Of a DNA stretch of 64,000 nt, positions 20,092 through 58,430 are shown piece by piece. The DNA comes from Cyanobacteria bacterium UBA6984 (GTDB lineage Bacteria > Cyanobacteriota > Vampirovibrionia > Gastranaerophilales > Gastranaerophilaceae). The notes below the pieces were generated by a model. That model had not been told where the DNA came from. It ran no database searches and saw only the letters and a list, made by a program, of their open reading frames with translations. Positions within the stretch are counted from its first letter, which is position 1. Every line of letters begins with the position of its first letter. The stretch lies in the NCBI GenBank assembly GCA_002450015.1, contig DJYG01000037.1:3149-67148 (forward strand), in the 5' to 3' direction. Position numbers and translations under genes: made by a program.

Positions 20092-21050
20092 AAGTTTCTG
20101 TCGTAATTCCTATATATAATGCCGAAAAATATTTAAAACAGTGTCTTGATAGTGTACAAAATCAGACATTAAAAGAAATTCAGATTATTTGTGTAAACGA
20201 TGGTTCTACTGATAAAAGTTTGGATATAATAAACGAATATTCTAAAAATGATGAAAGATTTGTTGTAATTAATCAAAAAAACAGTGGCTGCGGAAAAGCA
20301 TATAATGAGGGTATGAAAGCCGCAACAGGTGAATACATAGGATTTGTTGAACCGGATGATTATATTAATCTTGATATGTATGAAAATCTTTATAATATTG
20401 CAAAATCGAATGACGTAGATTTTGTTAAGTCCGATTTTGTTGAATTTAATTCAAAAGGTGAAACAAATTATAGAGCATTAACATATTCAAAGGAGTATTA
20501 TAACAAAATTATTAATCCGAAAGAAGATTTAAATGTTTTTAATTTTGCTATGAATACTTGGACAGGGATATATAGCCGTGAATTTCTTGAAAAAAACGAT
20601 ATAAAATACAATGAAACAGCGGGTGCAAGTTTTCAGGATAATGGTTTTTGGTTTAAAACTTTTTGCCTTGCGGAAAGGGTTTATTTTTTAGATAAAGACT
20701 TTTATAATTATAGAATTGATAATCCAAATTCATCAATAAATAATCATGAGAAAGTTTTATGTATGAAAACGGAGTATGATTTAATTTATGAATTTTTATG
20801 TAAAAATTCAGATTTAAAGGAAAGGTTTAAGTATATATACCAATTAAGAAGGTTTAAAAATTATAAATTTTCATATAAACGAATTTCGAAAAAGTATAAA
20901 TGGCAGTTTTTAAAAGTATTTGCAAATGATTTGAAAGAAGCTGAAAGACGACAAGAAATTGACAAAAGCTTGTTTAGAAAAGATGAATTAAGAGAAATCT
21001 TTTTAATAAAATATTTTCCGATTTTGTATTTATTGATGACTAAAAATTAA
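20082..21050 (+). CDS. family 2 glycosyltransferase
   Basis: VSVVIPIYNAEKYL, CVNDGSTDKS, FVEPDD. Confidence 0.85.
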   Translation: MEIKVSVVIPIYNAEKYLKQCLDSVQNQTLKEIQIICVNDGSTDKSLDIINEYSKNDERFVVINQKNSGCGKAYNEGMKAATGEYIGFVEPDDYINLDMYENLYNIAKSNDVDFVKSDFVEFNSKGETNYRALTYSKEYYNKIINPKEDLNVFNFAMNTWTGIYSREFLEKNDIKYNETAGASFQDNGFWFKTFCLAERVYFLDKDFYNYRIDNPNSSINNHEKVLCMKTEYDLIYEFLCKNSDLKERFKYIYQLRRFKNYKFSYKRISKKYKWQFLKVFANDLKEAERRQEIDKSLFRKDELREIFLIKYFPILYLLMTKN

Positions 21051-21110
21051 TATATTTGACCGAAAAATAAATTTATGTGAAAATAAAATTAAGGAAGTTA
21101 AGGAGAAATT

Positions 21111-21947
21111 ATGTTAAGTAAATATTTTCAAGTAAAGACAAAATCTAAAAAATTTGATGATGACTTATTGTGGTCAATGGGCGAAATAAAAGGTAAAAAA
21201 GTTCTTTTATATGGTGCTGGAGAAGGTTTTGTAGAATTAAATAAAAGATACTTTTTCAATGATGTGTTAAATATAGTTGCAATAGCAGATAAAAAATTCG
21301 AGCACGAATGTGAATGTGGTTGTGGGCACAGTGGTTGTTGCTGTGGTCACGAACATAAGGCAGAAGAAAAATATGAAACTCAATATTTTGAAGGGATAAG
21401 AGCGATTGCTCCAAGTGATATTCCAAATGAAGATTATGATGTTCTATTGATAACAAACGAACGTCCTCAACCAATTTTGAACTACGTATTTAATGAATTG
21501 AACATTGAGGGTAAAGACGTAAGAACAGTATTTAATGAAGAAATACCTGATGAACAGCCTAATTTGTTGTATTTATACAATTTTAAATTTGATAAGACAT
21601 TGCCAAAACTGGTTAAAAAACTTGAAGGTAAATCAGTTGTAATATATGGTGCGGGAGTATTTTTTGAAATTATTAAAAAATACTTTGACCTTTCGGGGTT
21701 GAATATAATTGGTGTTTCAGATAGAAGATTTGAAGGTCACGAAGAAAATGAAGAATTTTTGGGCTACAAGACTTATGCTCCATCAGAAATAAAAGAATTA
21801 AACCCTGATTATGTTTTGGTGGCTACAAAATTCTATATAAATATCATTGAAGATTTGTATTATGACACATTGAAGGGTTCAAAGATTAAAATAAAACCAT
21901 TAATGAAAAAGCCGTTTTGGACATTGGTTAAAGAAATTTGGGGATAA
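21111..21947 (+). CDS. hypothetical protein: tandem duplicated G-x-G (Rossmann-like) module with a Cys/His-rich insertion
   Basis: Repeat 1 KKVLLYGAGEGF...IVAIADKKFEH and repeat 2 KSVVIYGAGVFF...IIGVSDRRFEGH. Insert HECECGCGHSGCCCGHEH at nt 21303..21356. Confidence 0.6.
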   Translation: MLSKYFQVKTKSKKFDDDLLWSMGEIKGKKVLLYGAGEGFVELNKRYFFNDVLNIVAIADKKFEHECECGCGHSGCCCGHEHKAEEKYETQYFEGIRAIAPSDIPNEDYDVLLITNERPQPILNYVFNELNIEGKDVRTVFNEEIPDEQPNLLYLYNFKFDKTLPKLVKKLEGKSVVIYGAGVFFEIIKKYFDLSGLNIIGVSDRRFEGHEENEEFLGYKTYAPSEIKELNPDYVLVATKFYINIIEDLYYDTLKGSKIKIKPLMKKPFWTLVKEIWG

Positions 21948-21948
21948 A

Positions 21949-22824
21949 ATGTCTGAAAAAATTAACATTTTTTTTAATGTAAATGATTTATATGTAAAAT
22001 ATATGTCAGTAACAATGGCATCTATTTTGATTAATACAAAAAGAGATGTTTCATTCTATGTTATAAGTAGTGATATTACAGAAAAGAGTAAAAAAAATAT
22101 AGAAAAGTTAAAAAGAATAAAAGATTTTGATATCGAGTATATAGATATAGATTCAAAAAAAATGGACCTAATTCCTGAAAGTTCAAGAAGTGATATATCT
22201 ATTGAAACAAATTATAGATTTTTAGTTTCATCATTAAAACCCGAAATGAAAAAATGTATATTTTTAGATGCAGATTTAGTTGTTGATAAAGATATATCAA
22301 AATTATGGGATATACATATTGAAGATAACTATATGGCAGCAGTGAAAGACCGTATCACTTTTTCATCAAGTTACAGTTGGGTACATAACTTGCCACTACC
22401 TGAAAAATTTACGTATGTAAATACAGGTGTTGCAATCATGAATTTAGATTTGTGGAGAAAAGATAATATTGAGCAAAAGATTTTTGAATATGCTCAAAAA
22501 TATAGAGATATATTGAAATTCCCTGATCAAGATATTTTAAATATTGTTTTAGCTCCAAAGATATATTATTTGGAAAATAAATTCAATGCTGACTGTAATC
22601 ATGAATATTTTATTGAAGAAGAAAGAAAAAAAGCATTTTTAAACTCCGTTGTATTTCACTGGGTTGGATACAATAAGCCTTGGAACAAATTCTTTTGCCC
22701 TTATTTTTATAAATACTGGATGTATGCATTTTTAAGTCCATATTATAAAGCTATAGCAAAAGAAATGTTTGATAATATAAAATTATATAAAAAAATACAT
22801 ATTTTAAAATTGATATATAATTAA
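21949..22824 (+). CDS. family 8 glycosyltransferase
   Basis: IFLDADLVVDKDISKLW, NTGVAIMNLDLWR, PDQDILN, WVGYNKPW. Confidence 0.8.
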   Translation: MSEKINIFFNVNDLYVKYMSVTMASILINTKRDVSFYVISSDITEKSKKNIEKLKRIKDFDIEYIDIDSKKMDLIPESSRSDISIETNYRFLVSSLKPEMKKCIFLDADLVVDKDISKLWDIHIEDNYMAAVKDRITFSSSYSWVHNLPLPEKFTYVNTGVAIMNLDLWRKDNIEQKIFEYAQKYRDILKFPDQDILNIVLAPKIYYLENKFNADCNHEYFIEEERKKAFLNSVVFHWVGYNKPWNKFFCPYFYKYWMYAFLSPYYKAIAKEMFDNIKLYKKIHILKLIYN

Positions 22825-22838
22825 TAGGGATAAACATT

Positions 22839-23771
22839 ATGAGTACTAGTTATTATATATATTTTATGTTTATACAAAAATTTTTAAGAATAATTGTTGT
22901 TTGGGTATTTTTTATCCGCAATTTTATTAAAACATTATATTGGTTTTGTTTTAATTATTTAAATTATAATTCAAGATTTTTATTGAACATAATTATGAAT
23001 ATAATTTCTAAAGCTAAAAATGTTGAAAAGTTTTTTATAAAACAATTCGTTAAACAAACCAGTAAACAATGGTTAAAATATAAAGGTATATACGAAGGTA
23101 AAGATGTTGTGTTAGTTGCTTGTGGACCAACAGTTAACAACTATAAAATGATAAAAGATGCTATTCATATTGGAGTTAACAGAGCATTTAAAATTCCTCA
23201 TATAAAATTTGATTATTTATGTTATCAGGATACGTTTCCTGAAGGTTCTGAAGAATTGGATGCATACACTCGTGAGAGTGTACGTTTATGTGGAATGTTA
23301 CCTGAATCAAGAAGATATGAATTAAGACATTGTGATTGGGATGGCTTACCATACACCAAAGAAAATTTACAAAATAATTTATTTTTTATGTTAAATCCGC
23401 ATGAAAAAGATTATAATTTTGCTTTAGATTTAGAAAAAGATGCTTTTTGTGATGCTGAAGGATGTGTTTTTTCTGCATTACAATTTGTTATGTACACTAA
23501 TCCAAAGAGAATTTATTTAGTAGGTTGTGATTGTTCAAATATTACCTCTGATTATGCATATGTAAAAATTAATCCTGAATATTCAAGGCAAAAAATTTCA
23601 TATATTGAGTTTAAAAATTTTTATGAAAAATATTATCCAGATACAGAGTTTGTATCAATAAATCCTGACGGTTTAAAGGGTATATTTAAAGATGTTTATA
23701 TTCAATCTTATATTGACAGTAATCCCGAATTAAACTTGTCGGATGAAAATATAGAAATTATACAAGGATAA
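22839..23771 (+). CDS. putative glycan-modifying enzyme (DUF115/MptE-like?), function uncertain
   Basis: VACGPTVNNY, GVNRAF and LVGCDCS blocks. An alternative start at ATG 22995 (MNIISKAKN) would remove an odd hydrophobic N-terminus. Confidence 0.35.
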   Translation: MSTSYYIYFMFIQKFLRIIVVWVFFIRNFIKTLYWFCFNYLNYNSRFLLNIIMNIISKAKNVEKFFIKQFVKQTSKQWLKYKGIYEGKDVVLVACGPTVNNYKMIKDAIHIGVNRAFKIPHIKFDYLCYQDTFPEGSEELDAYTRESVRLCGMLPESRRYELRHCDWDGLPYTKENLQNNLFFMLNPHEKDYNFALDLEKDAFCDAEGCVFSALQFVMYTNPKRIYLVGCDCSNITSDYAYVKINPEYSRQKISYIEFKNFYEKYYPDTEFVSINPDGLKGIFKDVYIQSYIDSNPELNLSDENIEIIQG

Positions 23772-23773
23772 AT

Positions 23774-24613
23774 ATGCCCAAAGTATCAAATATTATAAAA
23801 ATTTTAATATCGTATCATAAGCCTTATTCATTGCTTAAAAACAAAATATTTGTACCGGTACATGTAGGTAGAGATGTTGCGATGGAAAAATCAAAAGATG
23901 GTAAAATCGCATTAAAAGATTATAATTGGCTTATAAAAAATTTAATAGGGGATAATACTGGAGAGAATATTTCTTACAAAAATCGAGAATGGTGTGAATT
24001 GACTGCTATATACTGGGCTTGGAAAAACTATGATAAAATAGGCAATCCCAGTTTCATAGGTTTTATGCATTATAGACGTTTCTTTGAGTTTGATAATTAC
24101 AAAAAAACTAAAGATATTGAAAATTTTGTAAAGAAATATGATTTTATAATCAATCAACGTTGTTTACATAATGAAAACGACCAAAATAATTATAATCAAT
24201 ATAAACTTTCAAAACATCATCATATTGAAAATTTAGAAGCAGCTATAGAAATTGTAAAGAAACTGTATCCATATTACGATGAATCAATAGAAAAATATTT
24301 AAAACTGGATTATGGATATTACAAAAATATTTTTATAATGAAAAAAGAAATCTTTTTTGAATATTGTAAATGGTTATTTTCTATACTGGAACAGTTAGAA
24401 AAAGAAATTGATATAACTATTTATAATGATCAAGAAAAACGAGTGTTTGGTTATATTGCGGAGCGTTTATTAGGTATTTTTTATACTCATTGGAAAAATG
24501 ACATTAAAACAACAGAATTGCCATTAGAACGTATATCAGAAATTAATTACATAAATTTCAATGAACGTATACATAACCTTCTACGAAAATTAATAATATT
24601 ATATTGTAGTTAA
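23774..24613 (+). CDS. DUF4422-family putative glycosyltransferase
   Basis: ILISYHKP, VPVHVGR, GDNTGENISYKNREWCELTAIYWAWKN, FMHYRRFF. Confidence 0.7.
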   Translation: MPKVSNIIKILISYHKPYSLLKNKIFVPVHVGRDVAMEKSKDGKIALKDYNWLIKNLIGDNTGENISYKNREWCELTAIYWAWKNYDKIGNPSFIGFMHYRRFFEFDNYKKTKDIENFVKKYDFIINQRCLHNENDQNNYNQYKLSKHHHIENLEAAIEIVKKLYPYYDESIEKYLKLDYGYYKNIFIMKKEIFFEYCKWLFSILEQLEKEIDITIYNDQEKRVFGYIAERLLGIFYTHWKNDIKTTELPLERISEINYINFNERIHNLLRKLIILYCS

Positions 24614-24667
24614 CAATAAATTCTATTTTTTACATAGATTTGTAATATATAACAATGAGGGAATTAA

Positions 24668-25630
24668 ATGAAACCAAATTTTGAAAAAAATAATATACCA
24701 GTAATATTTTCAGCAGATAATAACTATGTAGATTATTTAATAGTAACTATTAAATCTTTAATTTGTAATTCATCAAACAAATATAATTACGATATTTATG
24801 TCCTTAATGACGATATCGAAGAACATTCAAAACTAGTTGTAAAACAACTGGAACAATCCAATGTCAAAATAACTTTTGTTGATATGAATCTATTATATAA
24901 CAATATTGATAAAAGTATTTTTTATTTACGTAATTATTTTACTATATCAACGTACAACAGATTTTTTATACCAAGGCTTTTTAAAAATTTTGATAAAATT
25001 ATATACATAGATTGTGACACGATAATTTTAGGAGATGTTGCAGAGTTGTATTATCATAATTTAAACAATAATGTTGCTGCGGCAACAAAAGATATTTATA
25101 TCATGTGTGAAGTTGCCTTGAATAATAAAAATATTGTAAATTATTTTGAAAATAAATTAAAATTAAAAAATAAAAATAACTATTTCCAAGCTGGACTATT
25201 AGTTCTTGATATAAAAAAATTGACATTGATGGATTTTGAAAGTAAATGTATTGATACTTTAAAAAAAATTAAAACTCCTCTTTTTGTTGATCAAGACATA
25301 TTGAATATAGTTCTTGAAAATCATGTTGAATTTCTTAATGTTGAATGGGATATGTTATTGCGATTATATTTTAAATATAAAAATTATAATGAAATACTTT
25401 CTAAATTAATGGTAGAAGAATATAACAAAGGTTTTAAACATCCTAAAATGGTACATTTTACAGGTAATATCAAGCCATGGAAAAGTTTACAAACGCCAAA
25501 AGCCTATTTATTTTGGAAATATGCTATAAGAACTCCTGTATTTTGGAAATTAATAAAAGAACCAGTGAGAGATTTTATTTTTAAATCAACTAAAAATTTA
25601 AGATTATTAAAGTTAGTATATTTTGGATAA
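24668..25630 (+). CDS. family 8 glycosyltransferase
   Basis: IPVIFSADNNYV, IYIDCDTIILGDVAELY, FQAGLLVLDIKKL, VDQDILN, HFTGNIKPW. Confidence 0.8.
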   Translation: MKPNFEKNNIPVIFSADNNYVDYLIVTIKSLICNSSNKYNYDIYVLNDDIEEHSKLVVKQLEQSNVKITFVDMNLLYNNIDKSIFYLRNYFTISTYNRFFIPRLFKNFDKIIYIDCDTIILGDVAELYYHNLNNNVAAATKDIYIMCEVALNNKNIVNYFENKLKLKNKNNYFQAGLLVLDIKKLTLMDFESKCIDTLKKIKTPLFVDQDILNIVLENHVEFLNVEWDMLLRLYFKYKNYNEILSKLMVEEYNKGFKHPKMVHFTGNIKPWKSLQTPKAYLFWKYAIRTPVFWKLIKEPVRDFIFKSTKNLRLLKLVYFG

Positions 25631-25633
25631 AAC

Positions 25634-26734
25634 ATGAAAAATTTAATAGTAGGAGCAGGGCTTACAGGTTCTGTTATAGCAAATTTAATAGCTGAAAGCG
25701 GAGAAAAAGTTACCGTAATCGACAAAAACAATTTTGTTGGCGGTAACATAAACGATTACGTTGACGAACAAACTCAAATCCACGTTCATCGTTTTGGACC
25801 TCACATTTTCCACACTAATTTAGAACGTGTTTGGCAATATTTATCTCAATTTACAGGCTGGCATGAATATTCTTTTGAACCAAATGTTGTTATAAAAGGT
25901 AAAAAAGTAACTTTACCATTTAACTTAAACACAATAAAGCAATGCTTTGATGAGCAAACTGCAGAAAAATATATCAAAAAGCTTGTTGATGTTTATGGAA
26001 TGGAACACAAAGTTCCTATTTTAGAGCTTAAACAAACAGATGATGAAGATTTAAAATTCATTGCAGATTTTGTTTATAAATATGTTTTTGAAGGTTATAC
26101 CATTAAACAATGGGGCTTGAAACCCGAAGAAATAGACCCGTCAATAACGGCTCGTGTTCCTGTATTTATAAGTTATGATAACAGATATTTTCAGGATAAA
26201 TATCAAGCAATACCTCAAAACGGTTATACAGAAATGGTTAAAAATATTCTTAATCACAAAAATATTGAAGTTCGCCTGAATACAAAATATCAGGATTTAA
26301 ACGAAAGTTTCGACAGGATTTTTTACACAGGTTCTATTGATGAATTTTTTGACTACAAATATGGAATGTTGCCATACAGAAGTCTTACTTTTGACATAGA
26401 AACGCATGACTGTGAATATTATCAGCCGACCGCTATGGTAAATTATCCTTGCAACAATGATTTTACAAGAATAACAGAGCATAAACACTTTTTAAGTGAA
26501 AAATCAGAAAAAACAGTTATTTCAAAAGAATATTCATACACTTTTGAACTTGGAAAAAATGAAAGATATTATCCTATAAAAAGTGATGCAAATGCTGAAC
26601 TTTACGAAAAATATTTAAATGATGCAAAACAACTAAAAAATACCTACTTTTTAGGCAGATTAGGAGCTTACAAATATTACAATATGGATCAGGCAGTTTT
26701 GGCAGCTTTGGAATTTTTTGATGTGATGAATTAA
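25634..26734 (+). CDS. glf: UDP-galactopyranose mutase
   Basis: IVGAGLTGSVIA, canonical FGPHIFHTN, YTIKQWG, NRYFQDKYQAIP, YTGSIDEFFDYKYGMLPYRS, GRLGAYKYYNMD. Confidence 0.9.
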   Translation: MKNLIVGAGLTGSVIANLIAESGEKVTVIDKNNFVGGNINDYVDEQTQIHVHRFGPHIFHTNLERVWQYLSQFTGWHEYSFEPNVVIKGKKVTLPFNLNTIKQCFDEQTAEKYIKKLVDVYGMEHKVPILELKQTDDEDLKFIADFVYKYVFEGYTIKQWGLKPEEIDPSITARVPVFISYDNRYFQDKYQAIPQNGYTEMVKNILNHKNIEVRLNTKYQDLNESFDRIFYTGSIDEFFDYKYGMLPYRSLTFDIETHDCEYYQPTAMVNYPCNNDFTRITEHKHFLSEKSEKTVISKEYSYTFELGKNERYYPIKSDANAELYEKYLNDAKQLKNTYFLGRLGAYKYYNMDQAVLAALEFFDVMN

Positions 26735-26775
26735 TGTTTAGTATGTTTTTGTTATAATTTTTTAGAGGTTTTATT

Positions 26776-27789
26776 ATGCCAAAAGTATCTGTAATTATAC
26801 CGGTATATAATGTAGAAGAATATCTTAGCGAGTGTTTAGACAGCCTAATTAATCAAACTTTAAGAGATATTGAAATTATTTGTATTAATGATGGTTCAAC
26901 AGATAATAGTCTGAATATTTTAAATGAATATGCAAAAAAAGATTCCAGAATAACTGTTTTAACTCAAGAAAATCAGGGCGCAGCTGTTGCACGTAATAGA
27001 GGTTTGGACATTGCAAAAGGTGAATACCTTTCAATATTAGATAGTGATGATTATTTCAAGCAAGATATGCTTGAAAAATTATATAACAGAGCTGTTGAAA
27101 CAGATGCAGAAATTGTAAAATGTTACGAATTTGTTGTTGATTCCAAAAATGATAAAATTTATGAAAATAAATTTTTGCCTAAAGAAAAAATGGATAAGAA
27201 AGTTTTCTCAAGTATAGATGTAAAAGACTGCGCTTTTGATTTATCAAGAAATATTGCTTGGGAAAAAATGTTTAAAGCAAGTTTTGTATATGATAATAAG
27301 ATTAGATTTCATAATGTAAGGGTTATTGATGATGCACATTTTGTTTTAATAGCGTTTGCACTTGCAAATCGAATAACTATAGTAAATGAAAATTTAGTTT
27401 TTCATAGAATAAATATTTCTAATCAACAAACTTGTGTTGATAATATGAATTCTTCAAAAAATAGAGTAAAAGATTTTATCTCAGCTTATGATAAAATTAG
27501 AAATTCTTTAATTGATAAAAACTTATATAATTTTTTTGAAAAAACATATATTAACAGATTGTGCCATGATATTTTATATTATACTTCAAAGTTAAGTTTT
27601 ATAAATAAAATATATTTTTATAATAAATTAAAAATAACAATATTTTCAAAAATAAATATTCTTGAAAAAAAAATGGATTATTATAGTAGTATGAATAGAT
27701 TTTATCTGGTTAAAATTATAAATAATCCTTTGTATATATTCATTGTATTTTTTAAAAGATTATTTTTAATCATTTTATATTGTCTGTAG
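26776..27789 (+). CDS. family 2 glycosyltransferase
   Basis: VSVIIPVYNVEEYL, CINDGSTDNS, ILDSDD. Confidence 0.85.
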   Translation: MPKVSVIIPVYNVEEYLSECLDSLINQTLRDIEIICINDGSTDNSLNILNEYAKKDSRITVLTQENQGAAVARNRGLDIAKGEYLSILDSDDYFKQDMLEKLYNRAVETDAEIVKCYEFVVDSKNDKIYENKFLPKEKMDKKVFSSIDVKDCAFDLSRNIAWEKMFKASFVYDNKIRFHNVRVIDDAHFVLIAFALANRITIVNENLVFHRINISNQQTCVDNMNSSKNRVKDFISAYDKIRNSLIDKNLYNFFEKTYINRLCHDILYYTSKLSFINKIYFYNKLKITIFSKINILEKKMDYYSSMNRFYLVKIINNPLYIFIVFFKRLFLIILYCL

Positions 27790-27810
27790 CTATAGTGTTT
27801 TGTTAAATTT

Positions 27811-29034
27811 TTAATATAATTCTTTGAGAACATCAATAACTCTATCTAATGCGCCTTGGTTTGATTCGAATACGTTTTTGCAGTCTTCGCAGCATTTGTT
27901 ATAAAAATCGTTATCAGAAAGTAATTTTCGCATATATTCTTCAAGCTCTTGGGCATTTTCAACAAGTTTCGCAGCGTTGCTTTGAGTTAATAATGCATAT
28001 ATATCTTTGAAATTATGAACACATTTCCCCGAAATTACAGGCTTTTCAAAAACAGTCGCCTCAAGCGGGTTATGTCCGCCTGTTTTATTAAAACTTCCGC
28101 CCATTATCGCAAAGTAACATAATGCATAAGCTTTACCTAATTCGCCCATCGTATCAAGCATTATAATTTCTTTGTCGTCAAATTTATCTCCACAAGAACG
28201 CAAACCCCAATTTAAACCCGTTTTTTCTATTAGTTTTTTCACAGCTTCGTGTCTTTCCGGATGACGTGGTGCAACAAGAAGTTTTACGTCAGGAAATTCT
28301 TTTTTTATCTTCTCAAAAACAGGAATAATTAACTCATCTTCCGTTGAATGTGTACTGCCTGCAATAATTATACGACCTTGTCCCAAATCAAAATCACATT
28401 CTCTGCGTGTAATATCAAATTTTAAATTACCCATTACAGATGTTGTTTCAAGATTTGCACCGATTGAAATAAGTTTTTGATTATCTTGCTCTGATTGAGT
28501 TAAAATCCTTGTATAATTTCGTAAAACAGGTTTGAAAAAGAACGACAACTTTTTATAACTGTTATAGGTTCTGTCTGAAATTCTTCCGTTTATAATTAAT
28601 AAATTTATTCCTCTGTTATTTACAAGTCTGGCAAAATTAGGCCACAGTTCTGTTTCTGCAACAATTATTGTTTTTGGATTTACTTTATTTAAAAAATGAC
28701 CTACACAAAACGGAAAATCAAACGGAAAATAAGTTATAAAATCAGCAATTTCACCTAATTTTTTCTTTGCAATTTCCTGCCCTGTCTGTGTCCCTGTGCA
28801 AACAACAATTTTGTTATCAAATGTTTCTTTTGTCTTTTTAATAAGGTTTTCTAATGCTATAACTTCACCAACAGAAACTCCGTAAAATACTATTGTATCT
28901 TTTAATTCAGGCGCATCAAAATATCCGCATTTTGTTTTAAACCCGTGTATTAATTTTGGTTTGAAAATTCCTGCGATAAGCCAAAACGGTATGATTAAGA
29001 TAAATAAAATTGTTGATAAAAAGCCATATATCAT
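27811..29034 (-). CDS. waaA: 3-deoxy-D-manno-octulosonic acid (Kdo) transferase
   Basis: N-terminal membrane anchor, FYGVSVGEV, VAPRHPER, MGGSFNKTGGHNPLE. Confidence 0.85.
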   Translation of the reverse strand: MIYGFLSTILFILIIPFWLIAGIFKPKLIHGFKTKCGYFDAPELKDTIVFYGVSVGEVIALENLIKKTKETFDNKIVVCTGTQTGQEIAKKKLGEIADFITYFPFDFPFCVGHFLNKVNPKTIIVAETELWPNFARLVNNRGINLLIINGRISDRTYNSYKKLSFFFKPVLRNYTRILTQSEQDNQKLISIGANLETTSVMGNLKFDITRRECDFDLGQGRIIIAGSTHSTEDELIIPVFEKIKKEFPDVKLLVAPRHPERHEAVKKLIEKTGLNWGLRSCGDKFDDKEIIMLDTMGELGKAYALCYFAIMGGSFNKTGGHNPLEATVFEKPVISGKCVHNFKDIYALLTQSNAAKLVENAQELEEYMRKLLSDNDFYNKCCEDCKNVFESNQGALDRVIDVLKELY

Positions 29035-49409: not shown

Positions 49410-50387
49410 ATGACAGCAGATTTTGCATCTAATATGAGTATGATGTTTGCACTAAACAATTTTACAAACGGTGCATATAAATATCAATATCCGACAATAA
49501 ACGGTGTTTCAAATGCATATATGAATCCAGAGATAATGAGTTCTATCCCATCAATATTTCAGCAAGCTGTTGTTCTTGCTAATGCAGGAAACATGGGTAA
49601 TTATGCTAATTTAACAAATTCTGATGTATTGAATATGTCTTTATCTAAACCTCTATGGATGCAGGCAGTTTCAAATCAAACATATACTCCGCAAGTTGAT
49701 TTTACAAGATTATACACATACAATCCGTTTGCTGTAAATAATGGTTCTACAACTACAGTAGGAAGTTCGCAAGCAGGTAGCGTAACAAATCTGTTTAATC
49801 AGCCAACAGTAAAAAATCAAGAACTTGCAAATGAATTGAATAAATTTGGTATTTCTTCAACAGGTGATGAAGAAAAAGATAAAAAAGCTTTAGAAAAAGC
49901 AAAAGCCGGTGAAACAAAAGTAAAAAAAGAAGCAGCAAAAATAGCAGAAGACTTGTATGATGCAATGAAGGGTGCAGGTACAAAGAACGATAAACTTCAA
50001 GCTGCAATTAATAAAATTAACAAAAATAATGTAATAGAAGTAATGGAAGCTTGGAATTCAAACTTCGCAGATGCTATGGGTGGAGATACCTTGTTGGAAG
50101 CGGTTCAAGGTGAACATCATACAGGATGGTTCGGCAACACTCAAGAAAAACAGGAAAATGCAATATTAAAAGCTTTAACAGATAGGGCAGAAGATGAAAA
50201 ACGCGGGCTTGGTTTGGATACTGAAGCTGCATCTGCAAGAGCAAAAGTAAATTCTGAACATAGTGCAATGTTTACATCAGATGATACTGTAAAAACTTCA
50301 ATAGAAAATCTTGCAAAACAAATTAAAGATAAAGAAAATTCGATTATAGCCGAAAAATATCAAAAAGCAGCGCAAAATAACAAATAG
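49410..50387 (+). CDS. hypothetical protein P1: unique N/Q/S-rich N-terminus + annexin-like C-terminal module
   Basis: 325 aa with no signal peptide. C-terminal 139 aa are about 90% identical to P2. AEDLYDAMKGAGTKNDKLQAAINKI resembles an annexin repeat. Confidence 0.6.
   Translation: MTADFASNMSMMFALNNFTNGAYKYQYPTINGVSNAYMNPEIMSSIPSIFQQAVVLANAGNMGNYANLTNSDVLNMSLSKPLWMQAVSNQTYTPQVDFTRLYTYNPFAVNNGSTTTVGSSQAGSVTNLFNQPTVKNQELANELNKFGISSTGDEEKDKKALEKAKAGETKVKKEAAKIAEDLYDAMKGAGTKNDKLQAAINKINKNNVIEVMEAWNSNFADAMGGDTLLEAVQGEHHTGWFGNTQEKQENAILKALTDRAEDEKRGLGLDTEAASARAKVNSEHSAMFTSDDTVKTSIENLAKQIKDKENSIIAEKYQKAAQNNK
49920..50336 (+). repeat. 417-bp direct repeat copy A (3' part of P1)
   Basis: Roughly 85-90% nucleotide identity by eye to 51262..51678. 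Encodes a 139-aa module. Confidence 0.85.
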
Positions 50388-50418
50388 AAAATAGTAATAA
50401 TATTTATAAGGAGAAAAA

Positions 50419-51717
50419 ATGAGCGTTCAATTATCACAATTGGCTTCCAGTTTAGGGTTTAAAGGTAAATTGCCAAAAGGAGCAACAGATATTACGAAAA
50501 ATCCTGATGGATCGTACAAAATAACTGTTAACGGTCAAGACAAAAATTATAATGCAGATGGCAGTGTATTTAGCGCTCCTGCAAAAGACAATGCTTCTGC
50601 CGCAGAGAATAATAACAGATCTCAAAGTACTCCTGCTGCTGACAATAATAGCAAACCTCAAAACACACCGGTTGCCGATAATAGCAATAGTGGTAATGGT
50701 AACGGTAATGCAGATAATAACGGAAATTCAGGCAAAGCAGACAATAATTCTTCAATTTTTGGTAACCGTACATCAGTAACAGGAAGTTTTAATATAGATC
50801 CTGCAAAATTGGCTGCAACATCAATGAATTTGAATGGAATAGTAAATATTGGTGCTGAAGTACCATTTGGCTTAGGTGGTATGATGAGTCAAGGTGCAAT
50901 GCAGCAAAATATGCAAGATTTTATGAATTCTGTCAATTTTAATTTTGATTTTAAAAATTTAGATTTATCTTCACCACAATTTGCAATACCTGGTTTTTAT
51001 CCTTCAGGCACAACCCAAACACCAAGCGGAGGTACTTCGGTAACTGTTGATGGAGCTACAAAAACCGTTGCGGAACTGGCTAAAGATGGAGGTTATGAAG
51101 AAACTGCTACTGATGGAGTCTATAAAAAGGGTGATAAATATTATAAGTATGATGTAAATAAAAAAGAATTTGTAGAAGTTACAGCTGCTGAAGCTAAAAA
51201 AGCAAAAGAAGCTGATGAAGCAAAAGCAAATGAAGAAAAAGATTTAAAAGAAAAAGAAAAAGTTAAAAAAGAAGCAGCAAAAATAGCAGAAGATTTGTAC
51301 GATGCAATGAAAGGTGCAGGAACAAAGAACGATAAACTTCAAGCAGCAATTGATAAAATTAATAAAGATAATGTAATAGAAGTAATGGATGCTTGGGATT
51401 CAAACTTTGCCGATGCTATGGATGGTGAAAGTTTGCTGGAAGCAATACAAGGTGAGCATCATACAGGATGGTTTGGAAACACCCAAGAAAAACAAGAGAA
51501 TGCAATTTTAAAAGCATTAACAGACAGGGCTGAAGATGAAAAACGCGGACTTGGTTTAGATACCGAAGCAGCCGCTGCAAGAGCAAAAGTAAATTCCGAA
51601 CATAGCGCAATGTTTACATCAGATGATACTGTAAGAACTTCAATAGAAAATCTTGCAAAAAAAATTAGAGAAAAAGAAGGTGGAACAACTACGCCTTCAG
51701 CACCAACAACAACGTAA
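50419..51717 (+). CDS. hypothetical protein P2: PFGLGG/FNFDF module + KYYKYD module + annexin-like C-terminal module
   Basis: 432 aa with a strong GGAG Shine-Dalgarno. N-terminal two-thirds are homologous to P3 and the C-terminus to P1. Confidence 0.6.
   Translation: MSVQLSQLASSLGFKGKLPKGATDITKNPDGSYKITVNGQDKNYNADGSVFSAPAKDNASAAENNNRSQSTPAADNNSKPQNTPVADNSNSGNGNGNADNNGNSGKADNNSSIFGNRTSVTGSFNIDPAKLAATSMNLNGIVNIGAEVPFGLGGMMSQGAMQQNMQDFMNSVNFNFDFKNLDLSSPQFAIPGFYPSGTTQTPSGGTSVTVDGATKTVAELAKDGGYEETATDGVYKKGDKYYKYDVNKKEFVEVTAAEAKKAKEADEAKANEEKDLKEKEKVKKEAAKIAEDLYDAMKGAGTKNDKLQAAIDKINKDNVIEVMDAWDSNFADAMDGESLLEAIQGEHHTGWFGNTQEKQENAILKALTDRAEDEKRGLGLDTEAAAARAKVNSEHSAMFTSDDTVRTSIENLAKKIREKEGGTTTPSAPTTT
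51262..51678 (+). repeat. 417-bp direct repeat copy B (3' part of P2)
   Basis: See copy A. 13 of 139 residues differ, and many of the changes are N/G to D. Confidence 0.85.
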
Positions 51718-51739
51718 TACTATAATAAAATAATATATT

Positions 51740-51773
51740 AAAGTACGGTTTGTTTTTAAATAAACCGTACTTT
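51740..51773. terminator. bidirectional terminator between P2 and the small Cys gene
   Basis: AAAGTACGGTTT-(10-nt loop)-AAACCGTACTTT. Confidence 0.7.
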
Positions 51774-51785
51774 GTATTGCAAAAT

Positions 51786-52004
51786 TTAATGAGTTCTTCT
51801 TGTTGTCGTATTTTCGAATATATTACGGGCATTGCTCATTGCAAGTGTTTTTAATGAGCACATTCCATAGTTTCTGTCAACAACACCAAGACTGGCTAAT
51901 CTGTTTAATAATAATTCGTTTAAATCTTCAGGATTGATAAATAATGCACAAGTTTTGTCACATATATCATTTTTAAACGGACATTTTCTAGAATTTTCAT
52001 CCAT
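51786..52004 (-). CDS. small four-cysteine protein of unknown function (paralog-like of 18302..18484)
   Basis: Start taken at the internal ATG (MDENSRKCPF...), with GGAG about 10 nt upstream. Shared pattern CP..., C..xCA(L/W)(F/Y), CS(I/L)xxLAxxNA. Confidence 0.45.
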   Translation of the reverse strand: MDENSRKCPFKNDICDKTCALFINPEDLNELLLNRLASLGVVDRNYGMCSLKTLAMSNARNIFENTTTRRTH

Positions 52005-52219
52005 ATAAAGTACTCTCCAAATTCTCAAATTGATGTACAATGTAGCTACATCATAGTATAATTTAAAAATAAAGTACAAATGTAAACAATTGTTAAAACA
52101 TGAACTAAAACCCTGAAAATACATGCAATTTCAGGAGAGAAAATGTTTTTACATGAGTGTAGGCGTATAGGAAAAATACGTGTGAAGGAAATGTACTTAA
52201 ATGTACAACGGAGGTGCTT

Positions 52220-54274
52220 ATGTATCCAGAAGCAAAAATTAATGGCGGAGGCACAAGTTCAGCAGATTGGACAGCAGGTTTGCCGGATGCCCTAAAAAAT
52301 AAAAAGCCTGAAGGTGCAAATGGCTTTACAAAAGTTGGTGATATATATATATTTACCAAAAATGGCGTAGCCATTGATGATAAGACTGGTTACAAAGCTA
52401 ATGGTGAGGCAACTAACATTTTTGACCAAGCTGCAAAACCTGATGATGCGTCAAAGGCGAAAGGTTCAGATGGTGCTGCGGGTAATAAATCAGGCAATAA
52501 AGCCGGTAATGGAGCTGGAAACGGTTCTTTAAGTACATTTGGCTTTGGATTTACCGGTACAGGTACAGATTTAAGCAATTCATGGATGAACATGGGTGGC
52601 GGATTTGAAATTGATTCAAATAAAATGATGAAATCAGCAGGTTTGATGGGCTTTATATCTGCTTTAGGTGGTATGATACCATTCGGCTTGGGTGGTCTGT
52701 TATCTCAAGGTGCATTACAGGCATCTATGGCTAGTTTCATGAATGCTGTAAAATTTAATTTTGATTTTTCAAATTTGAATTTGTCAGGTGATAATACAAG
52801 AACTGATGATTCAGAAGGCGCAAGTGATTCTGGGGACGCCGGTAGCGTTGATACATCAAAAGTTCCTGATGGATACAAAAAAACGAATGTAGATGGTGTA
52901 TTTGAAAAAGACGGAAAATACTATAAATATGATGATAATAAAAAATTAGTTGAATGCAAACAAGACGGTACAGCATTATCAACATCTGCTGCTCCTGCTG
53001 ATGATTCAGAAGGTGCAGGTGCAGGTTCTGCTGCAGGTGGCTCAGGCTCAGGCTCAGGCTCAAGCTCAGGCTCAAGCTCAGGCTCTCGTGTTTCAGGTGG
53101 TTCAGGCTCATCTTCTGGTGCAGGTTCAACCGGTGCCGGTAGTGGTAAAAAAACTTCTGGCATGCAAGGATGGTACAACGCTGGAAAAGATAAGAATAAT
53201 AACATAAAAGGTTTGACAAAAGAAGCTTTAAGCGCTGCTGAAGCAAAAAAAGCGGGCAGTGCGGCAAATTTAGTTGTTGAAAAACTTGTAGCTTCAAAAA
53301 CAAACAATCAATGGACAGCTGAACAAAAAGAAAAGTTAAGAGCTGAAATAATAAAGAAAAACCCTAGCGTATTCAATAAAGATGGTTCGTTAAAGTCTAA
53401 CTTTGATGTTTCAAAATTGGATATTCCAACTTTTGATTGGATGGAAAAAAATATCGGTAAAGCAACAAAAATAAATAATAATAACAAGACTTCAGGTGCT
53501 GCTAAACAATCTCAATCAACCTCATTAAATCGTCCTGCTGCAGCAACGTCAGGTTACATAACTTCTCTTGCTGACTTAGGAACCAGAATGAAAGGCGGTA
53601 TAGATAAGTTTGCAGGTAAACAGTTTAGTAAAGATAACTTAGTGGCTTATTTAGATCAAAATGATCAAAAGACTGTTACTGATATTAAGAACAATGGTGA
53701 CACTATAAGTTTTAGTACTTTTGACCCTGCTAAAAAAGGTACTATGGGCGGTGGTAGAGGTGTTTCCTATACTGTTAAGTTTAATCAATCAGGGCAACCT
53801 GTTAGTATTAAATCAGGTGTTATACAATACGATATGACCTATGGTCAAAATGGTGTAAGAGCTACTGCTACAAAGCAAAATATTGGTACGTATGGAAACC
53901 ACAATACCGATTCTTGGACATATACTTCAAATGGTGCTATACGTTATCATAAAGTTACTAGTGGTAGAAATGGTTCAGGTGAAAAACTCTCAGGTGAAAC
54001 TTATAACGAGCCATATAAATCTGGTCAAGGTCAAACAAAAATAACATTACCTAGTTTTTCATCAGGAACTCAAGGTTACAATAATGGTAAAATAGTTCAA
54101 GGTGATGTAACGTGGTCTAAGAGTGGTAATAATATTGTTAAGACAAACAAGAAAACTGGTGTTACTGAAACCTATGATAAAAATGGTTATTTAATAAAGA
54201 AAGAAGATAGTAAATCAGGTTATACATATACTTATCGCAAGAATAATTATGATATAGCGTATGAAAAACCATAA
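52220..54274 (+). CDS. hypothetical protein P3: PFGLGG/FNFDF module + KYYKYD module + Gly/Ser linker + Y/T/G/N-rich (YD-like) C-terminal region
   Basis: ATG 52220 lies 6 nt after GGAGG (the track start is GTG 52214). Homology to P2 over the first ~250 aa, read by eye. Confidence 0.6.
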   Translation: MYPEAKINGGGTSSADWTAGLPDALKNKKPEGANGFTKVGDIYIFTKNGVAIDDKTGYKANGEATNIFDQAAKPDDASKAKGSDGAAGNKSGNKAGNGAGNGSLSTFGFGFTGTGTDLSNSWMNMGGGFEIDSNKMMKSAGLMGFISALGGMIPFGLGGLLSQGALQASMASFMNAVKFNFDFSNLNLSGDNTRTDDSEGASDSGDAGSVDTSKVPDGYKKTNVDGVFEKDGKYYKYDDNKKLVECKQDGTALSTSAAPADDSEGAGAGSAAGGSGSGSGSSSGSSSGSRVSGGSGSSSGAGSTGAGSGKKTSGMQGWYNAGKDKNNNIKGLTKEALSAAEAKKAGSAANLVVEKLVASKTNNQWTAEQKEKLRAEIIKKNPSVFNKDGSLKSNFDVSKLDIPTFDWMEKNIGKATKINNNNKTSGAAKQSQSTSLNRPAAATSGYITSLADLGTRMKGGIDKFAGKQFSKDNLVAYLDQNDQKTVTDIKNNGDTISFSTFDPAKKGTMGGGRGVSYTVKFNQSGQPVSIKSGVIQYDMTYGQNGVRATATKQNIGTYGNHNTDSWTYTSNGAIRYHKVTSGRNGSGEKLSGETYNEPYKSGQGQTKITLPSFSSGTQGYNNGKIVQGDVTWSKSGNNIVKTNKKTGVTETYDKNGYLIKKEDSKSGYTYTYRKNNYDIAYEKP
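53039..53086 (+). repeat. in-frame hexanucleotide simple-sequence repeat (GGCTCA/AGCTCA x8) encoding a Gly/Ser linker
   Basis: GGCTCA x4, AGCTCA, GGCTCA, AGCTCA, GGCTCT. Translates to GSGSGSGSSSGSSSGS inside P3. Confidence 0.9.
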
Positions 54275-55791: not shown

Positions 55792-57096
55792 TTACTTACA
55801 TTCGTGAATAATTTCTTCTTCTTTCATCATTGCTTTTGTTTCTTCTACTGAAACTGTGTCTAGAGCTTGGACTTTTTCTAATCCTTTTTCCAATAATTTT
55901 GCTTGTTGAGATTTAAGTTCATCATCTGCAATTACCAAATCTCTGCCTTTTGCAGCAGTAATTATTTGTATTACATTTTCAGTTGGAGAGCCTTCTTCGT
56001 TAGCTTTTTTCTGTATTGCATAGCTTGCCCAATCTTCAGGCAAATCTTTAATATTTGCATATCCTTTGTCACCGGTTATACGTTTTTGAATTTGCGCTTG
56101 TAAAACATTTTTTACGTATTCTTTTTGTGACATAAATCTGCAAGGAATTATTATATCTGTTCCAATAACTTCTTCAGGATCACGTTTTTCACGTTTTTTG
56201 AAAATATCTGCTGCAATTTTTAAATGGCCTATTTCAAAATCTAAGAACATTTCCCAAATTTTCTTAAATCTGTCATCAACTTCATCTGTCATGCAGGTGT
56301 AATATGTGCAAACTTCCGTAAATTCGTGTAAAAGAAGTTTTTCATACCAAGATTCGGTAGGGTCAATCAAAGATTCATACATTGTAACGTGTTCTTCTTC
56401 CACGTCTTTAATTTCTGCATAAGTTTCTCTTATACATTGATTACCGTATTGCATACCGTGTTCAGCGTAAAAATTGTGTGTTTGTTGTTCTCCTGAAACA
56501 AGAGTGTAAAGATTAACTTTTGTTTGAGGTGCAGCTGTTGTTTTATCATAAGGCTTACGAAGTCTTACGATATTGCAATTGTGGTGATATTGAGTCGGAC
56601 GTCCTAAAATTACGTCGGTGTTGCCTTGCAAAATATCATTAGGACTTATGCCATGTTCCATATATGCCCATTGACTGTATCTGTACAGATGGTCAAAATC
56701 TTCCAATAAGCCAAAGTCAAAAGTTTCTTTTACATATTCATCAGGTTCATTTTGCGCCATCCAAGCTGTCATTTCTACTGCTACTTGTTCATAGCCTAAT
56801 GTTGTTTCCAAAACAGACTGATCTGCCGGCGTTTGCCAGTTTACTGTTGTTTGTTGGGCATCTTCAATTCTTTTGGATACTGCAAGAAATTCTTGAACTT
56901 CAGTGTCAGTTGTTGTTCTTGAAAAATTATGCTTAAAGTTCCATGCTTCTATTTCTATTCCATTCATAAGAATTTGTCTTGTTCGTGTATAGCAATCAAC
57001 TTCTGTTTTATTAAACGGTTTTTTGGCAATTTCGTGCCAATTTCTAAGTTGTTTTTCTAGTGGTGTACCTTTTTCTTTTAATGCATTAAAACTCAT
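55792..57096 (-). CDS. hypothetical protein, possible ferritin-like (di-iron carboxylate) fold
   Basis: E / ExxH / E / ExxH-like spacing: SGEQQTH, VEEEHVTMYE, LHEFTE, FEIGHLKIAADIF. No family assignment is possible by eye. Confidence 0.4.
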   Translation of the reverse strand: MSFNALKEKGTPLEKQLRNWHEIAKKPFNKTEVDCYTRTRQILMNGIEIEAWNFKHNFSRTTTDTEVQEFLAVSKRIEDAQQTTVNWQTPADQSVLETTLGYEQVAVEMTAWMAQNEPDEYVKETFDFGLLEDFDHLYRYSQWAYMEHGISPNDILQGNTDVILGRPTQYHHNCNIVRLRKPYDKTTAAPQTKVNLYTLVSGEQQTHNFYAEHGMQYGNQCIRETYAEIKDVEEEHVTMYESLIDPTESWYEKLLLHEFTEVCTYYTCMTDEVDDRFKKIWEMFLDFEIGHLKIAADIFKKREKRDPEEVIGTDIIIPCRFMSQKEYVKNVLQAQIQKRITGDKGYANIKDLPEDWASYAIQKKANEEGSPTENVIQIITAAKGRDLVIADDELKSQQAKLLEKGLEKVQALDTVSVEETKAMMKEEEIIHECK

Positions 57097-57116
57097 TTTT
57101 AATTTCCTTTCTTTTT

Positions 57117-58430
57117 TTATAAATTTATTGCGTAACTAAATAATTTAGCGACTTCAAGGTTATATTGACGTCCGTCATCCTTTGCAAATAAATGTTCCCA
57201 ATGGCTTTTTGGACTACCATTTTCTGAATATGACGGATTAGACATCATTAAGTGGTGTGTACTTGTATCGTAGCGAAGCGGAAACAAGTCTTCCATTTGC
57301 ATAAAACTCGGAAGTTTATCACTAGGATATTCGTAGCCAAACAGAACATTATGTATTCTAAAAAGTCTGTTTTCATAGCTTCTTCCACCTTCATCATTGT
57401 CATTTGAAACTTCTATTCCGGGTGCATAATTTGTTTTATATTTTAATTCGTGCGACCATTGTTTTATTGAATTTATGTCTTCGGGTGAAATAAATGCAGT
57501 TCCTGTTGTAAATCCTAAGTTTTCGTACCTGTTAAAATCTTCTGTTGATTTTTCTCCGGCAAAACTAAGTGTCATACAGCCTGAACGTTTGCGAATTTCA
57601 TCCAAAATATATTGCATTTGTTGATATTCCGGTAAAGCGCCTACCCCTGCATAATTTTCCATGTCATATCCGCCAATGTGTTTGGCTGAATCGACAAATA
57701 TTGCTTCAAATCCCAGTTTTACAAGTTTTACATGTTCATTTATAAACATTTCTTGGTGTTCCGGATTATCCCATTTGAATATTTCTTCATTACCATTTTT
57801 ATTTATAATTTTTATTTGATCAGCTGAAATTACTGTTCTAAAACCTGTTTTTAGTCCGTGAATATATGCGAGCAGATTAAATGCTTTAAATTGTTCTTCA
57901 GGAGTGATTTTTTTCGATATATCAAAGTCAATAATATTATGGCTGTAACCTGCATTAAGTTTTATTCCATAAATTGAATTTTCTTCATTCGGGAGTTTTA
58001 CATGTCCATCTCCGTAAATATTAGGAAAGATTTGAGATAATATTATACAATTAGCCCAGCTTTTAGCAGACGGCGGTATTGCAGGTAATATTTTTATAGA
58101 ACTTAAAATTCCGTTTTTAGTTTTATTTTTGTGCATTTCTGCTATGGCACGGTTATTGATTTCAACATAGTTAGCTCGTCTTCCCCAATTATCACCATAA
58201 TTCGGAGTTGTTATGTTGTCAGGAAATTCTTTATAAAATTCTCCGCTTTCATTTATTGTAACTAATATATTTATTGCATCTTTAACGCTTTGGTTAAGAA
58301 GTTCAGACGGAATAATTCCTGCTAACCATTTCTTTTTTTCAGCTTTGAATAAATACGGTTCTATTTTTTTATTCGGTGTTAGTTTAATATTTTCTTTTAA
58401 AGATTTCAGGAGTTTGTTTACTTCGTTCAT
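57117..58430 (-). CDS. hypothetical protein, weak resemblance to alpha-amylase-family (GH13-like) TIM-barrel enzymes
   Basis: GFEAIFVDSAKHIGG resembles the GFRxDxxKH region, SFAGEKS resembles the acid/base region, and EVSNDND resembles the NHD region. The call is speculative. Confidence 0.3.
   Translation of the reverse strand: MNEVNKLLKSLKENIKLTPNKKIEPYLFKAEKKKWLAGIIPSELLNQSVKDAINILVTINESGEFYKEFPDNITTPNYGDNWGRRANYVEINNRAIAEMHKNKTKNGILSSIKILPAIPPSAKSWANCIILSQIFPNIYGDGHVKLPNEENSIYGIKLNAGYSHNIIDFDISKKITPEEQFKAFNLLAYIHGLKTGFRTVISADQIKIINKNGNEEIFKWDNPEHQEMFINEHVKLVKLGFEAIFVDSAKHIGGYDMENYAGVGALPEYQQMQYILDEIRKRSGCMTLSFAGEKSTEDFNRYENLGFTTGTAFISPEDINSIKQWSHELKYKTNYAPGIEVSNDNDEGGRSYENRLFRIHNVLFGYEYPSDKLPSFMQMEDLFPLRYDTSTHHLMMSNPSYSENGSPKSHWEHLFAKDDGRQYNLEVAKLFSYAINL

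Follow-up and report, generated by a model that had tools for sequence, protein, structure and literature searches.

Single-repeat annexins and a paralogue with exchangeable ends in a gene block of gut Melainabacteria

Three neighbouring genes, P1, P2 and P3, occupy positions 49,410 to 54,274 of a 64,000-nucleotide stretch of DNA (the window) from Cyanobacteria bacterium UBA6984, a member of the order Gastranaerophilales. P1 and P2 encode bacterial single-repeat annexins: the C-terminal module that they share, C1, is a single annexin repeat, consisting of a five-helix repeat with a canonical type II calcium loop and a two-helix extension. A first-pass annotation of the window had described the genes as a mosaic family with shuffled modules and no recognisable function. 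The mosaic stands, but the verdict on function does not, given the annexin repeat of C1 and the distal part of the P3 end (C2), which by its predicted fold is a YD/Rhs/MORN-like beta-hairpin sheet. The annexin repeats add members to a small known group; to our knowledge, few annexins have been described from bacteria and no function has been assigned to any of them. The N2 module common to P2 and P3, a gene pair under conversion and a paralogue with exchangeable ends are undescribed. The genes and their annexin modules are as follows.

49410..50387, forward strand: P1, 325 amino acids (from the list of open reading frames, ORFs). Module N1, rich in Asn, Gln, Met and aromatic residues (residues 1-110), a linker with LNKFGISSTGD, and the C-terminal annexin-repeat module C1, as laid out by orthologue alignment.
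49914..50334, forward strand: C1 of P1, the gene-conversion tract shared with P2; GxGT loop at 49971-49982.
50419..51717, forward strand: P2, 432 amino acids (ORF list). Nt beta unit, low-complexity tract, N2, YKYD beta unit, long helix and annexin-repeat module, from the orthologue alignment and an AlphaFold model.
51257..51676, forward strand: C1 of P2, with annexin helices A to E at about residues 287-372 plus a two-helix extension; KGAGT loop at 51310-51324, E341 at 51439-51441.
52220..54274, forward strand: P3, 684 amino acids (ORF list). Nt unit, low-complexity tract with FGFGF, N2', YKYD unit, Gly/Ser linker, helical mid-module and predicted beta-hairpin sheet.

All three ORFs lie on the forward strand as first annotated. 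P3 starts at an ATG at 52220 with GGAGG in front, and its orthologues also open with MYP. P1 and P2 are separated by 31 nucleotides and are probably co-transcribed. The C-termini of P1 and P2 are 90% identical across 132 amino acids (E 7e-86), within a common module of 140 codons, and the N-terminal halves of P2 and P3 are 36% identical across 250 amino acids (E 5e-25), a region that covers the PFGLGG/FNFDF and YKYD segments; P1 and P3 have nothing in common. Both similarities are far beyond chance and confirm the mosaic, so that the combinations N1-C1, N2-C1' and N2'-C2 are real. The N-terminus of P1 is not detectably related to N2: homology between N1 and N2 was rejected at an hhalign probability of 0.8%, the two having only a 20-column WMQ..FDF resemblance. 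As single sequences, P1 to P3 gave sub-threshold matches only in Pfam and NCBIfam.

The annexin assignment draws on sequence, profile and structure comparisons. The P2 sequence by itself matches annexin A8 in the PDB (E 1e-4) over AEDLYDAMKGAGTK. A C1 family profile (A6), built from 12 diverse C1 modules, found 74 matches in the PDB, of which the 60 listed are annexins or annexin A2 fusions without exception, the best at E 5.8e-25. The Pfam Annexin family (PF00191) matches 17 of 22 P2 orthologues, with a best E value of 3.1e-6. An AlphaFold model of P2 (m7e7fe36978a8; 22 orthologues) has predicted local distance difference test scores (pLDDT) above 90 over residues 287-420, and its helices in the annexin region (256-298, 303-312, 319-329, 339-347 and 355-372) follow the five-helix (A to E), roughly 70-residue repeat fold of the annexins. 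When this model was compared with the PDB by Foldseek, the top 50 matches listed were all annexins or annexin A2 fusion constructs, with probabilities of up to 0.97; the E value was merely about 0.06 because the query was the whole multidomain model.

The calcium-binding features are equally recognisable. The loop K-G-A-G-T has both Gly residues and the Thr invariant in the C1 family alignment, and in P2 it spans K298 to T302, with Glu (E341) at T+39, a spacing canonical for type II sites; P1 has an identical loop and Glu. The window proteins P1 and P2 thereby carry the type II calcium site, that is (M/L)-K-G-x-G-T with Asp or Glu 38 residues later. Across 51 sequences of the C1 family the T+39 residue is Glu in 26 and Gln in 22. 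The annexin C-terminus is kept in all P1 and P2 orthologues.

Bacterial single-domain annexins (Cytophaga hutchinsonii) have been surveyed in 34 proteins from 17 species, among which there are no Melainabacteria (Kodavali et al. 2014, PMC3894181). In Flavobacteria, short genes for single-domain annexins occur side by side in pairs, which was read there as a hint of pairing, and P1 and P2 resemble the annexins of Kordia and Aquimarina in being two short annexin genes that are immediate neighbours (PMC3894181). P1 and P2 are also like the surveyed proteins in having one GxGT-loop repeat each, fused to unrelated non-annexin regions. They differ in that the fused modules (N1, Nt, N2 and YKYD) are different and undescribed, in that their repeats undergo gene conversion, and in that a third paralogue has swapped the annexin end for what is predicted to be a beta-hairpin sheet. 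Our literature search found no paper linking Melainabacteria to annexins. In eukaryotes, annexins A7 and A11 join a long disordered N-terminus rich in Gly, aromatic and polar residues to a calcium- and phospholipid-binding annexin end. By analogy, the low-complexity N-terminus and annexin end of P1 and P2 could tether a protein assembly to a membrane. No common descent of the N-termini is implied, and P1 and P2 have one repeat with a two-helix extension where the eukaryotic proteins have four-repeat cores; neither a four- nor an eight-repeat annexin core was found. The P1 and P2 sequences offer a defined set for testing the role of a single annexin repeat in a prokaryote.

The two C1 modules in this genome have been homogenised by gene conversion across a 420-nucleotide tract. 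Positions 49914-50334 and 51257-51676 are about 89% identical at the nucleotide level, with sharp borders beyond which the flanks drop to about 50%, and the roughly 11% nucleotide divergence of the tract gives 13 amino acid changes in 132 residues. Intragenomic identity between the C1 modules of P1 and P2 is 90%, 96% and 79% in three lineages and 57-67% in three others, the latter keeping distinct P1-type and P2-type modules. By this division the C1 module of the window P1 is of the P2 type, being closer to the P2-type C1 of L007 (73%) than to P1 of L007 (63%); L-numbers designate related contigs or loci and P00xx numbers the family proteins retrieved. The locus is an example of gene conversion that keeps two neighbouring domains alike.

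The N-terminal half common to P2 and P3 has four parts, the low-complexity tract and the units that follow here.

50419..50574, forward strand: Nt unit of P2 (residues 1-52), one helix and three strands, pLDDT about 90.
50776..50967, forward strand: N2 of P2 (residues 120-183; IDP ... PFGLGG ... FNFDF), profile A2.
51034..51186, forward strand: YKYD beta-hairpin unit of P2 (residues 206-256), pLDDT above 90, strands within 207-253.
52592..52783, forward strand: N2' of P3 (residues 125-188), from the P2/P3 alignment and profile search.
52859..52993, forward strand: YKYD unit of P3 (residues 214-258), from the P2/P3 alignment and BLAST.

The Nt unit also occurs in P3-class proteins, as seen in a tblastn module map and the P2 orthologue alignment, and the P2 model places a disordered tract rich in Asn, Gly and Ser between it and N2. 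The PFGLGG/FNFDF module, N2, is a new, undescribed domain: it has no relatives in Pfam or NCBIfam and none among PDB sequences below E 1, in agreement with the first-pass annotation, which could assign it to no family. An exhaustive hidden Markov model (HMM) search of 1.84 billion representative proteins returned 43 matches, about 35 of which were judged convincing; these always fall at residues of about 90-210 in proteins of 400-680 amino acids. The model of N2 (strand, helix, PFGLGG turn, helix, strand) is of low confidence. N2 is well delimited, and its fusion partners switch between the putatively membrane-binding annexin end and variable beta-hairpin ends.

In both P2 and P3, N2 contains the most hydrophobic 19-residue segment. 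A transmembrane hairpin was considered for it and set aside, the hydropathy maximum of 1.0-1.6 being borderline at best. The highest 19-residue Kyte-Doolittle means are 1.1 for P1, 1.0 for P2 and 1.6 for P3, against 2.8 for the neighbouring MscL. As the first-pass annotation had it, none of the three proteins shows a classical export signal: hydropathy, which was used here with no dedicated signal-peptide predictor run, gave neither an N-terminal hydrophobic core nor a clear transmembrane segment. The N-terminal halves have no Pfam or NCBIfam match, and hence no recognised trafficking domain (LXG, PAAR, MIX and others).

Tabulating what is fused to the PFGLGG/FNFDF module gave either an annexin repeat or one of seven C-terminal groups that BLAST does not link to one another, four of them recurrent. 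The YKYD unit varies as well: some P2 orthologues lack it, some P1 orthologues contain it as an insertion, and P3-class proteins carry up to three copies. Proteins P0067 and P0068 are 97% identical over 279 aligned amino acids (the first 290 or so residues); past a break within a Pro/Thr-rich linker, they are unrelated. The cassette behaviour that had been suspected for the whole family is therefore real for the P3 class; it is confined to that class, since every P1 and P2 orthologue has the annexin repeat at its C-terminus. Given such strain-level exchange, P3 is likely to be under diversifying pressure in the gut.

Behind its Gly/Ser linker, P3 has a long C-terminal part, as had been noted, which we measured at about 375 amino acids. 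Module boundaries were set by BLAST against family members, and the model of the whole protein (m37c702ff3baa; mean pLDDT 78.7) places two domains after the linker.

53168..53470, forward strand: helical mid-module (GWY ... IIKKNPSVF ... SKLDIPTFDW), pLDDT about 90-97.
53519..54271, forward strand: predicted C-terminal antiparallel beta-hairpin sheet, about 16 strands and 250 amino acids.

The best Foldseek matches of the sheet in the PDB are teneurin and Rhs YD shells and effectors and the single-layer sheet of OspA (E 2e-4 to 1e-3), and giant-virus MORN-repeat proteins are among the top matches of the sheet in BFVD. Pfam gave nothing for P3 itself and only sporadic MORN_2 or RHS_repeat matches among 30 P3-class relatives (RHS_repeat in one of the 30, E 8e-4). 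P3 is like MORN-repeat proteins in its modelled single-layer antiparallel beta-hairpin sheet, and unlike them in its irregular repeat length and the lack of a significant Pfam MORN match. MORN proteins often bind membranes or lipids. Few homologues of P3 were recovered (five matches in a word-index search and four with a C-terminal profile), probably because low-complexity words filled the candidate list. The mid-module is shared with P0062 at 42% and also occurs in three Melainabacteria proteins without N2 (P0092, P0093 and P0094), where it reads GWY ... IIKKNPSVF ... SKLDIPT.DW and stands behind Gly/Met-rich N-termini (MGIYGMG ..., GGMNMGMGGYGMGMGG); their existence suggests that the shuffled, lineage-specific modules belong to a larger pool. 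A GGCTCA repeat of 7.8 copies at 53039-53085 encodes part of the Gly/Ser linker of P3; length changes or recombination might occur there, in analogy with the Pro/Thr linker break of P0067 and P0068.

Two further elements lie between P2 and P3.

51740..51773, no strand assigned: hairpin between the convergent P2 and 72-amino-acid-protein genes, with a perfect stem of 12 bp that is flanked by A-rich sequence 5' and U-rich sequence 3'.
51786..52004, reverse strand: gene for a 72-amino-acid protein, divergent from P3, with four invariant Cys residues (CPF-x5-C-x3-C ... C) and the C-terminus IFENTTTRR.

Together with the 72-residue gene, P1 to P3 belong to a block that is vertically inherited and specific to a lineage, the gut Melainabacteria of the order Gastranaerophilales. 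The order rimO-P1-P2-72-residue gene (opposite strand)-P3, or a permutation of it, recurs in L005-L021 and L031-L044 and is syntenic in at least 14 Gastranaerophilales contigs; variants run P1-72-residue gene-P2-P3 or P1-72-residue gene-P3. The window P2 itself is carried by metagenome contigs as long as 85 kb. Its homologues numbered just 34 clusters (90% identity) among 5.8 billion, one of them named 'Candidatus Melainabacteria bacterium', and a scan of one genome per GTDB species found 23 loci, all from Gastranaerophilales or Melainabacteria metagenome-assembled genomes (MAGs) or from contigs binned under implausible names, which are obviously mis-binned. The annexin gene pair is thus conserved and syntenic across the recovered contigs of a lineage that has not been cultured and is common in the guts of humans and animals.

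Upstream of P1 the window carries genes for FlgB, FlgC (Flg_bb_rod), FliE and RimO, and downstream of P3 a Gp49 (HigB-like)/HI1420-type antitoxin pair (higBA) followed by mscL, just as the first-pass annotation placed the locus. The flagellar part of this setting is not conserved. Only the window, L007, L008, L014 and L031 have FlgB, FlgC and FliE upstream; elsewhere unrelated genes precede rimO, and in L005, L006, L009-L013 and L017-L019 no flagellar gene was found near the block within the fetched flanks of ±6-10 kb. Adjacency to rimO, on the other hand, is conserved. A horizontally acquired or mobile island was ruled out on this fixed position; the GC (guanine plus cytosine) fraction rises from a window background of about 0.30 to 0.37 at 52-54 kb, in keeping with a P3 coding sequence rich in Gly, Ser and Ala codons. 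A phage origin was rejected likewise, there being no relatives in viral contigs (IMG/VR) and only sub-significant matches in PHROGs, to families of unassigned function, and so was a defence system, for which PADLOC gave no match.

The 72-residue protein is 75-86% identical across cluster-bearing contigs and so more conserved than P1 to P3; its substitutions by codon position (16/4/40) mark it as clearly coding. It has no match in Pfam, NCBIfam, PDB, PADLOC or PHROGs. The gene is usually divergent from the first N2-bearing gene, although in environmental Melainabacteria (L048, L051) it shares its strand with RimO and a P-like gene, and in L039 and L056 its context is unrelated. A role as dedicated partner or immunity gene was rejected, as the protein is highly conserved, does not co-vary with the P3 ends and is found away from the cluster. 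The hairpin beside it, with a predicted RNA folding energy of -18.9 kcal/mol (z -5.96; none of 200 shuffles as stable), is likely a bidirectional intrinsic terminator; a consensus terminator scan missed it.

In our preferred reading, which we hold with about even confidence, P1 to P3 form a membrane-binding modular protein set; the locus is not a function-less toxin cassette. The annexin ends of P1 and P2 would attach to the head-groups of acidic phospholipids on the surface of a membrane, probably assisted by calcium, and the two single repeats may pair with each other like the repeats within a eukaryotic annexin core. Because P2 and P3 share N2 while their ends differ, we take N2 as a module common to both that serves assembly, targeting or membrane insertion. 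The P3 end could then be a variable ligand-binding head that is exchanged between strains, and the three proteins together may form a membrane-tethered scaffold or an adhesin-like set rather than a toxin. They may act at the cytoplasmic face or outside the cell after export by a route other than Sec. Residence in the cytoplasm would be consistent with a response to membrane damage set off by calcium, as in eukaryotes. The variable end of P3, rich in Gly, Ser, Asn, Thr and Lys, suggests exposure outside the cell.

Several observations weigh against this picture. By themselves the window proteins fall short of the Pfam Annexin gathering cutoff of 25 bits, P1 scoring 13.6 bits and P2 giving no match. 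The abundant P0027 lineage (those 22 of 51 sequences) has Gln in place of the acidic cap residue, and the calcium loop is degenerate (KDGTH) in one environmental relative, so that calcium dependence may not be general. The structure of N2 is predicted at low confidence (pLDDT about 50). The 72-residue gene is also found away from the P genes, at 57-63% identity, and may be just a syntenic neighbour. The function proposed for P1 to P3 is deduced from domain identity. Finally, strain-level exchange of the P3 end and a composition like that of secreted proteins are unexplained by a membrane scaffold in the cytoplasm.

Export through the flagellar type III apparatus, with P1 to P3 as its substrates or accessories leaving through the flagellar export gate, would account for the missing Sec signals and for the disordered N-termini rich in Asn, Gln, Ser and Gly. 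Some non-flagellar proteins leave by the flagellar export gate in Campylobacter. The cluster adjoins flgB-flgC-fliE in the five contigs named above, a related annexin-repeat protein directly follows FliK-like and FlgE/F/G-like genes in L022-L024, and in the environmental relative L048 RimO, the P-like gene and the 72-residue gene are followed two genes on by FliE/FliF; P1 and P2, moreover, contain no Cys. We nevertheless consider flagellar export unlikely. The identical rimO-linked block occurs at many loci whose flanks hold no flagellar gene, complete flagellar gene sets were present in just three of nine Gastranaerophilales genomes (Soo et al. 2014, PMC4040986), and P1 to P3 have no similarity to flagellar protein families (Flg_bb_rod, flagellin or FliK-type domains). 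By a rough count, two or three of about seven arrangement classes lie near flagellar genes, which is not clearly beyond chance or inherited synteny. A related and similarly speculative idea, to which we give little credence, is that Nt-N2 is an export or anchoring module peculiar to Melainabacteria that delivers proteins to the surface without Sec, possibly by the flagellar gate. If it held, P1 and P2 would use their annexin ends to bind membranes in the gut lumen, which is rich in calcium, strain-variable P3 heads would bind variable ligands of host, phage or neighbouring cells, and a gut cyanobacterial lineage would possess a new kind of polymorphic surface system. A prokaryotic membrane-repair set, triggered by calcium, based on annexins and working at the cytoplasmic face, would be just as novel an alternative.

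The first-pass annotation had likened the module swapping to that of polymorphic toxin, effector and surface-protein cassettes, in which case an Nt-N2 trafficking region would deliver interchangeable C-terminal payloads and P1 and P2 would be accessory or alternative carriers. Part of the analogy survives. A variable C-terminus does follow a conserved N-terminal region, as seen in the seven unlinked groups behind N2 and in the replacement behind the 97%-identical half of P0067 and P0068; the P3 end resembles the YD shell of Rhs toxins and teneurins by fold, no Sec leader is present, and fusions to toxin or protease domains are on record for some bacterial annexins (PMC3894181). The remainder does not. 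Among 30 P3-class proteins, Pfam detected no domain of a toxin, nuclease, protease or other enzyme, and no Rhs-core motif (DPxG[LWIVM]) was found in 27. Rhs toxins form a closed cocoon of at least 700 amino acids with a DPxGL core, a toxin domain and an immunity gene; the P3 sheet, at about 250 amino acids, is far too short for one and has no DPxGL or toxin tip, nor does P3 have a PAAR, VgrG or type VI secretion context. No variable, small, immunity-like gene lies 3' of P3, where higBA is found here and an opposite-strand spermine-synthase gene elsewhere. The lack of a PADLOC match and of any sign of mobility, the position beside rimO being fixed across an order, and the invariant annexin ends of P1 and P2 count against a toxin cassette as well, and we think it improbable.

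That the genes are fast-evolving, lineage-specific, low-complexity ORFs with no coherent function, their modules being leftovers of duplication, might be argued from the long Asn/Gly/Ser/Gln tracts, the largely low-confidence residues 55-198 of P2 and the very few homologues in very large databases; it is excluded by conservation, namely order-wide synteny, many invariant positions in alignments A1, A3 and A6, confidently folded domains in the P2 and P3 models and the few amino acid changes in the conversion tract, and is hardly credible.

Some minor observations concern the surroundings of the block and other annexin-repeat genes. In L005 (13445-18172) and L006 (13272-18000), which are without higBA and mscL, an opposite-strand run 3' of P3 encodes spermine synthase-like, DUF350, DUF4178 and PspA/IM30 proteins. 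A membrane-stress gene lies near P3 both there (PspA/IM30) and in the window (mscL), which may be coincidental. Between mscL and a hybrid-cluster protein gene, the window has two adjacent reverse-strand genes (55792-58430) for proteins of 434 and 437 amino acids without clear families, the first having only a weak rubrerythrin-like match (E 0.025); they were not found in the related loci L005-L030. At 20000-28000, eight same-strand genes for proteins of about 280-370 amino acids coincide with the lowest GC of the window (0.24-0.27, the whole being about 30%) and a strong positive GC skew. In rumen MAGs (L022, 234-3816; also L023 and L024), a 272-amino-acid annexin-repeat protein with an N-terminus rich in FG and Asn reaches 24.1 bits with Pfam Annexin, and three genes past it is a leaderless protein of 566 amino acids with YD-like repeats and a HELGH metalloprotease-type motif. 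A distant second annexin-repeat family (386-512 amino acids), with an aromatic-rich N-terminus and a long coiled coil, is found in L025-L030 (for example L025, 2721-6387), always near genes for two paralogous signal-peptide proteins (about 270-300 amino acids, no Pfam match) and an LplA-type lipoate ligase.

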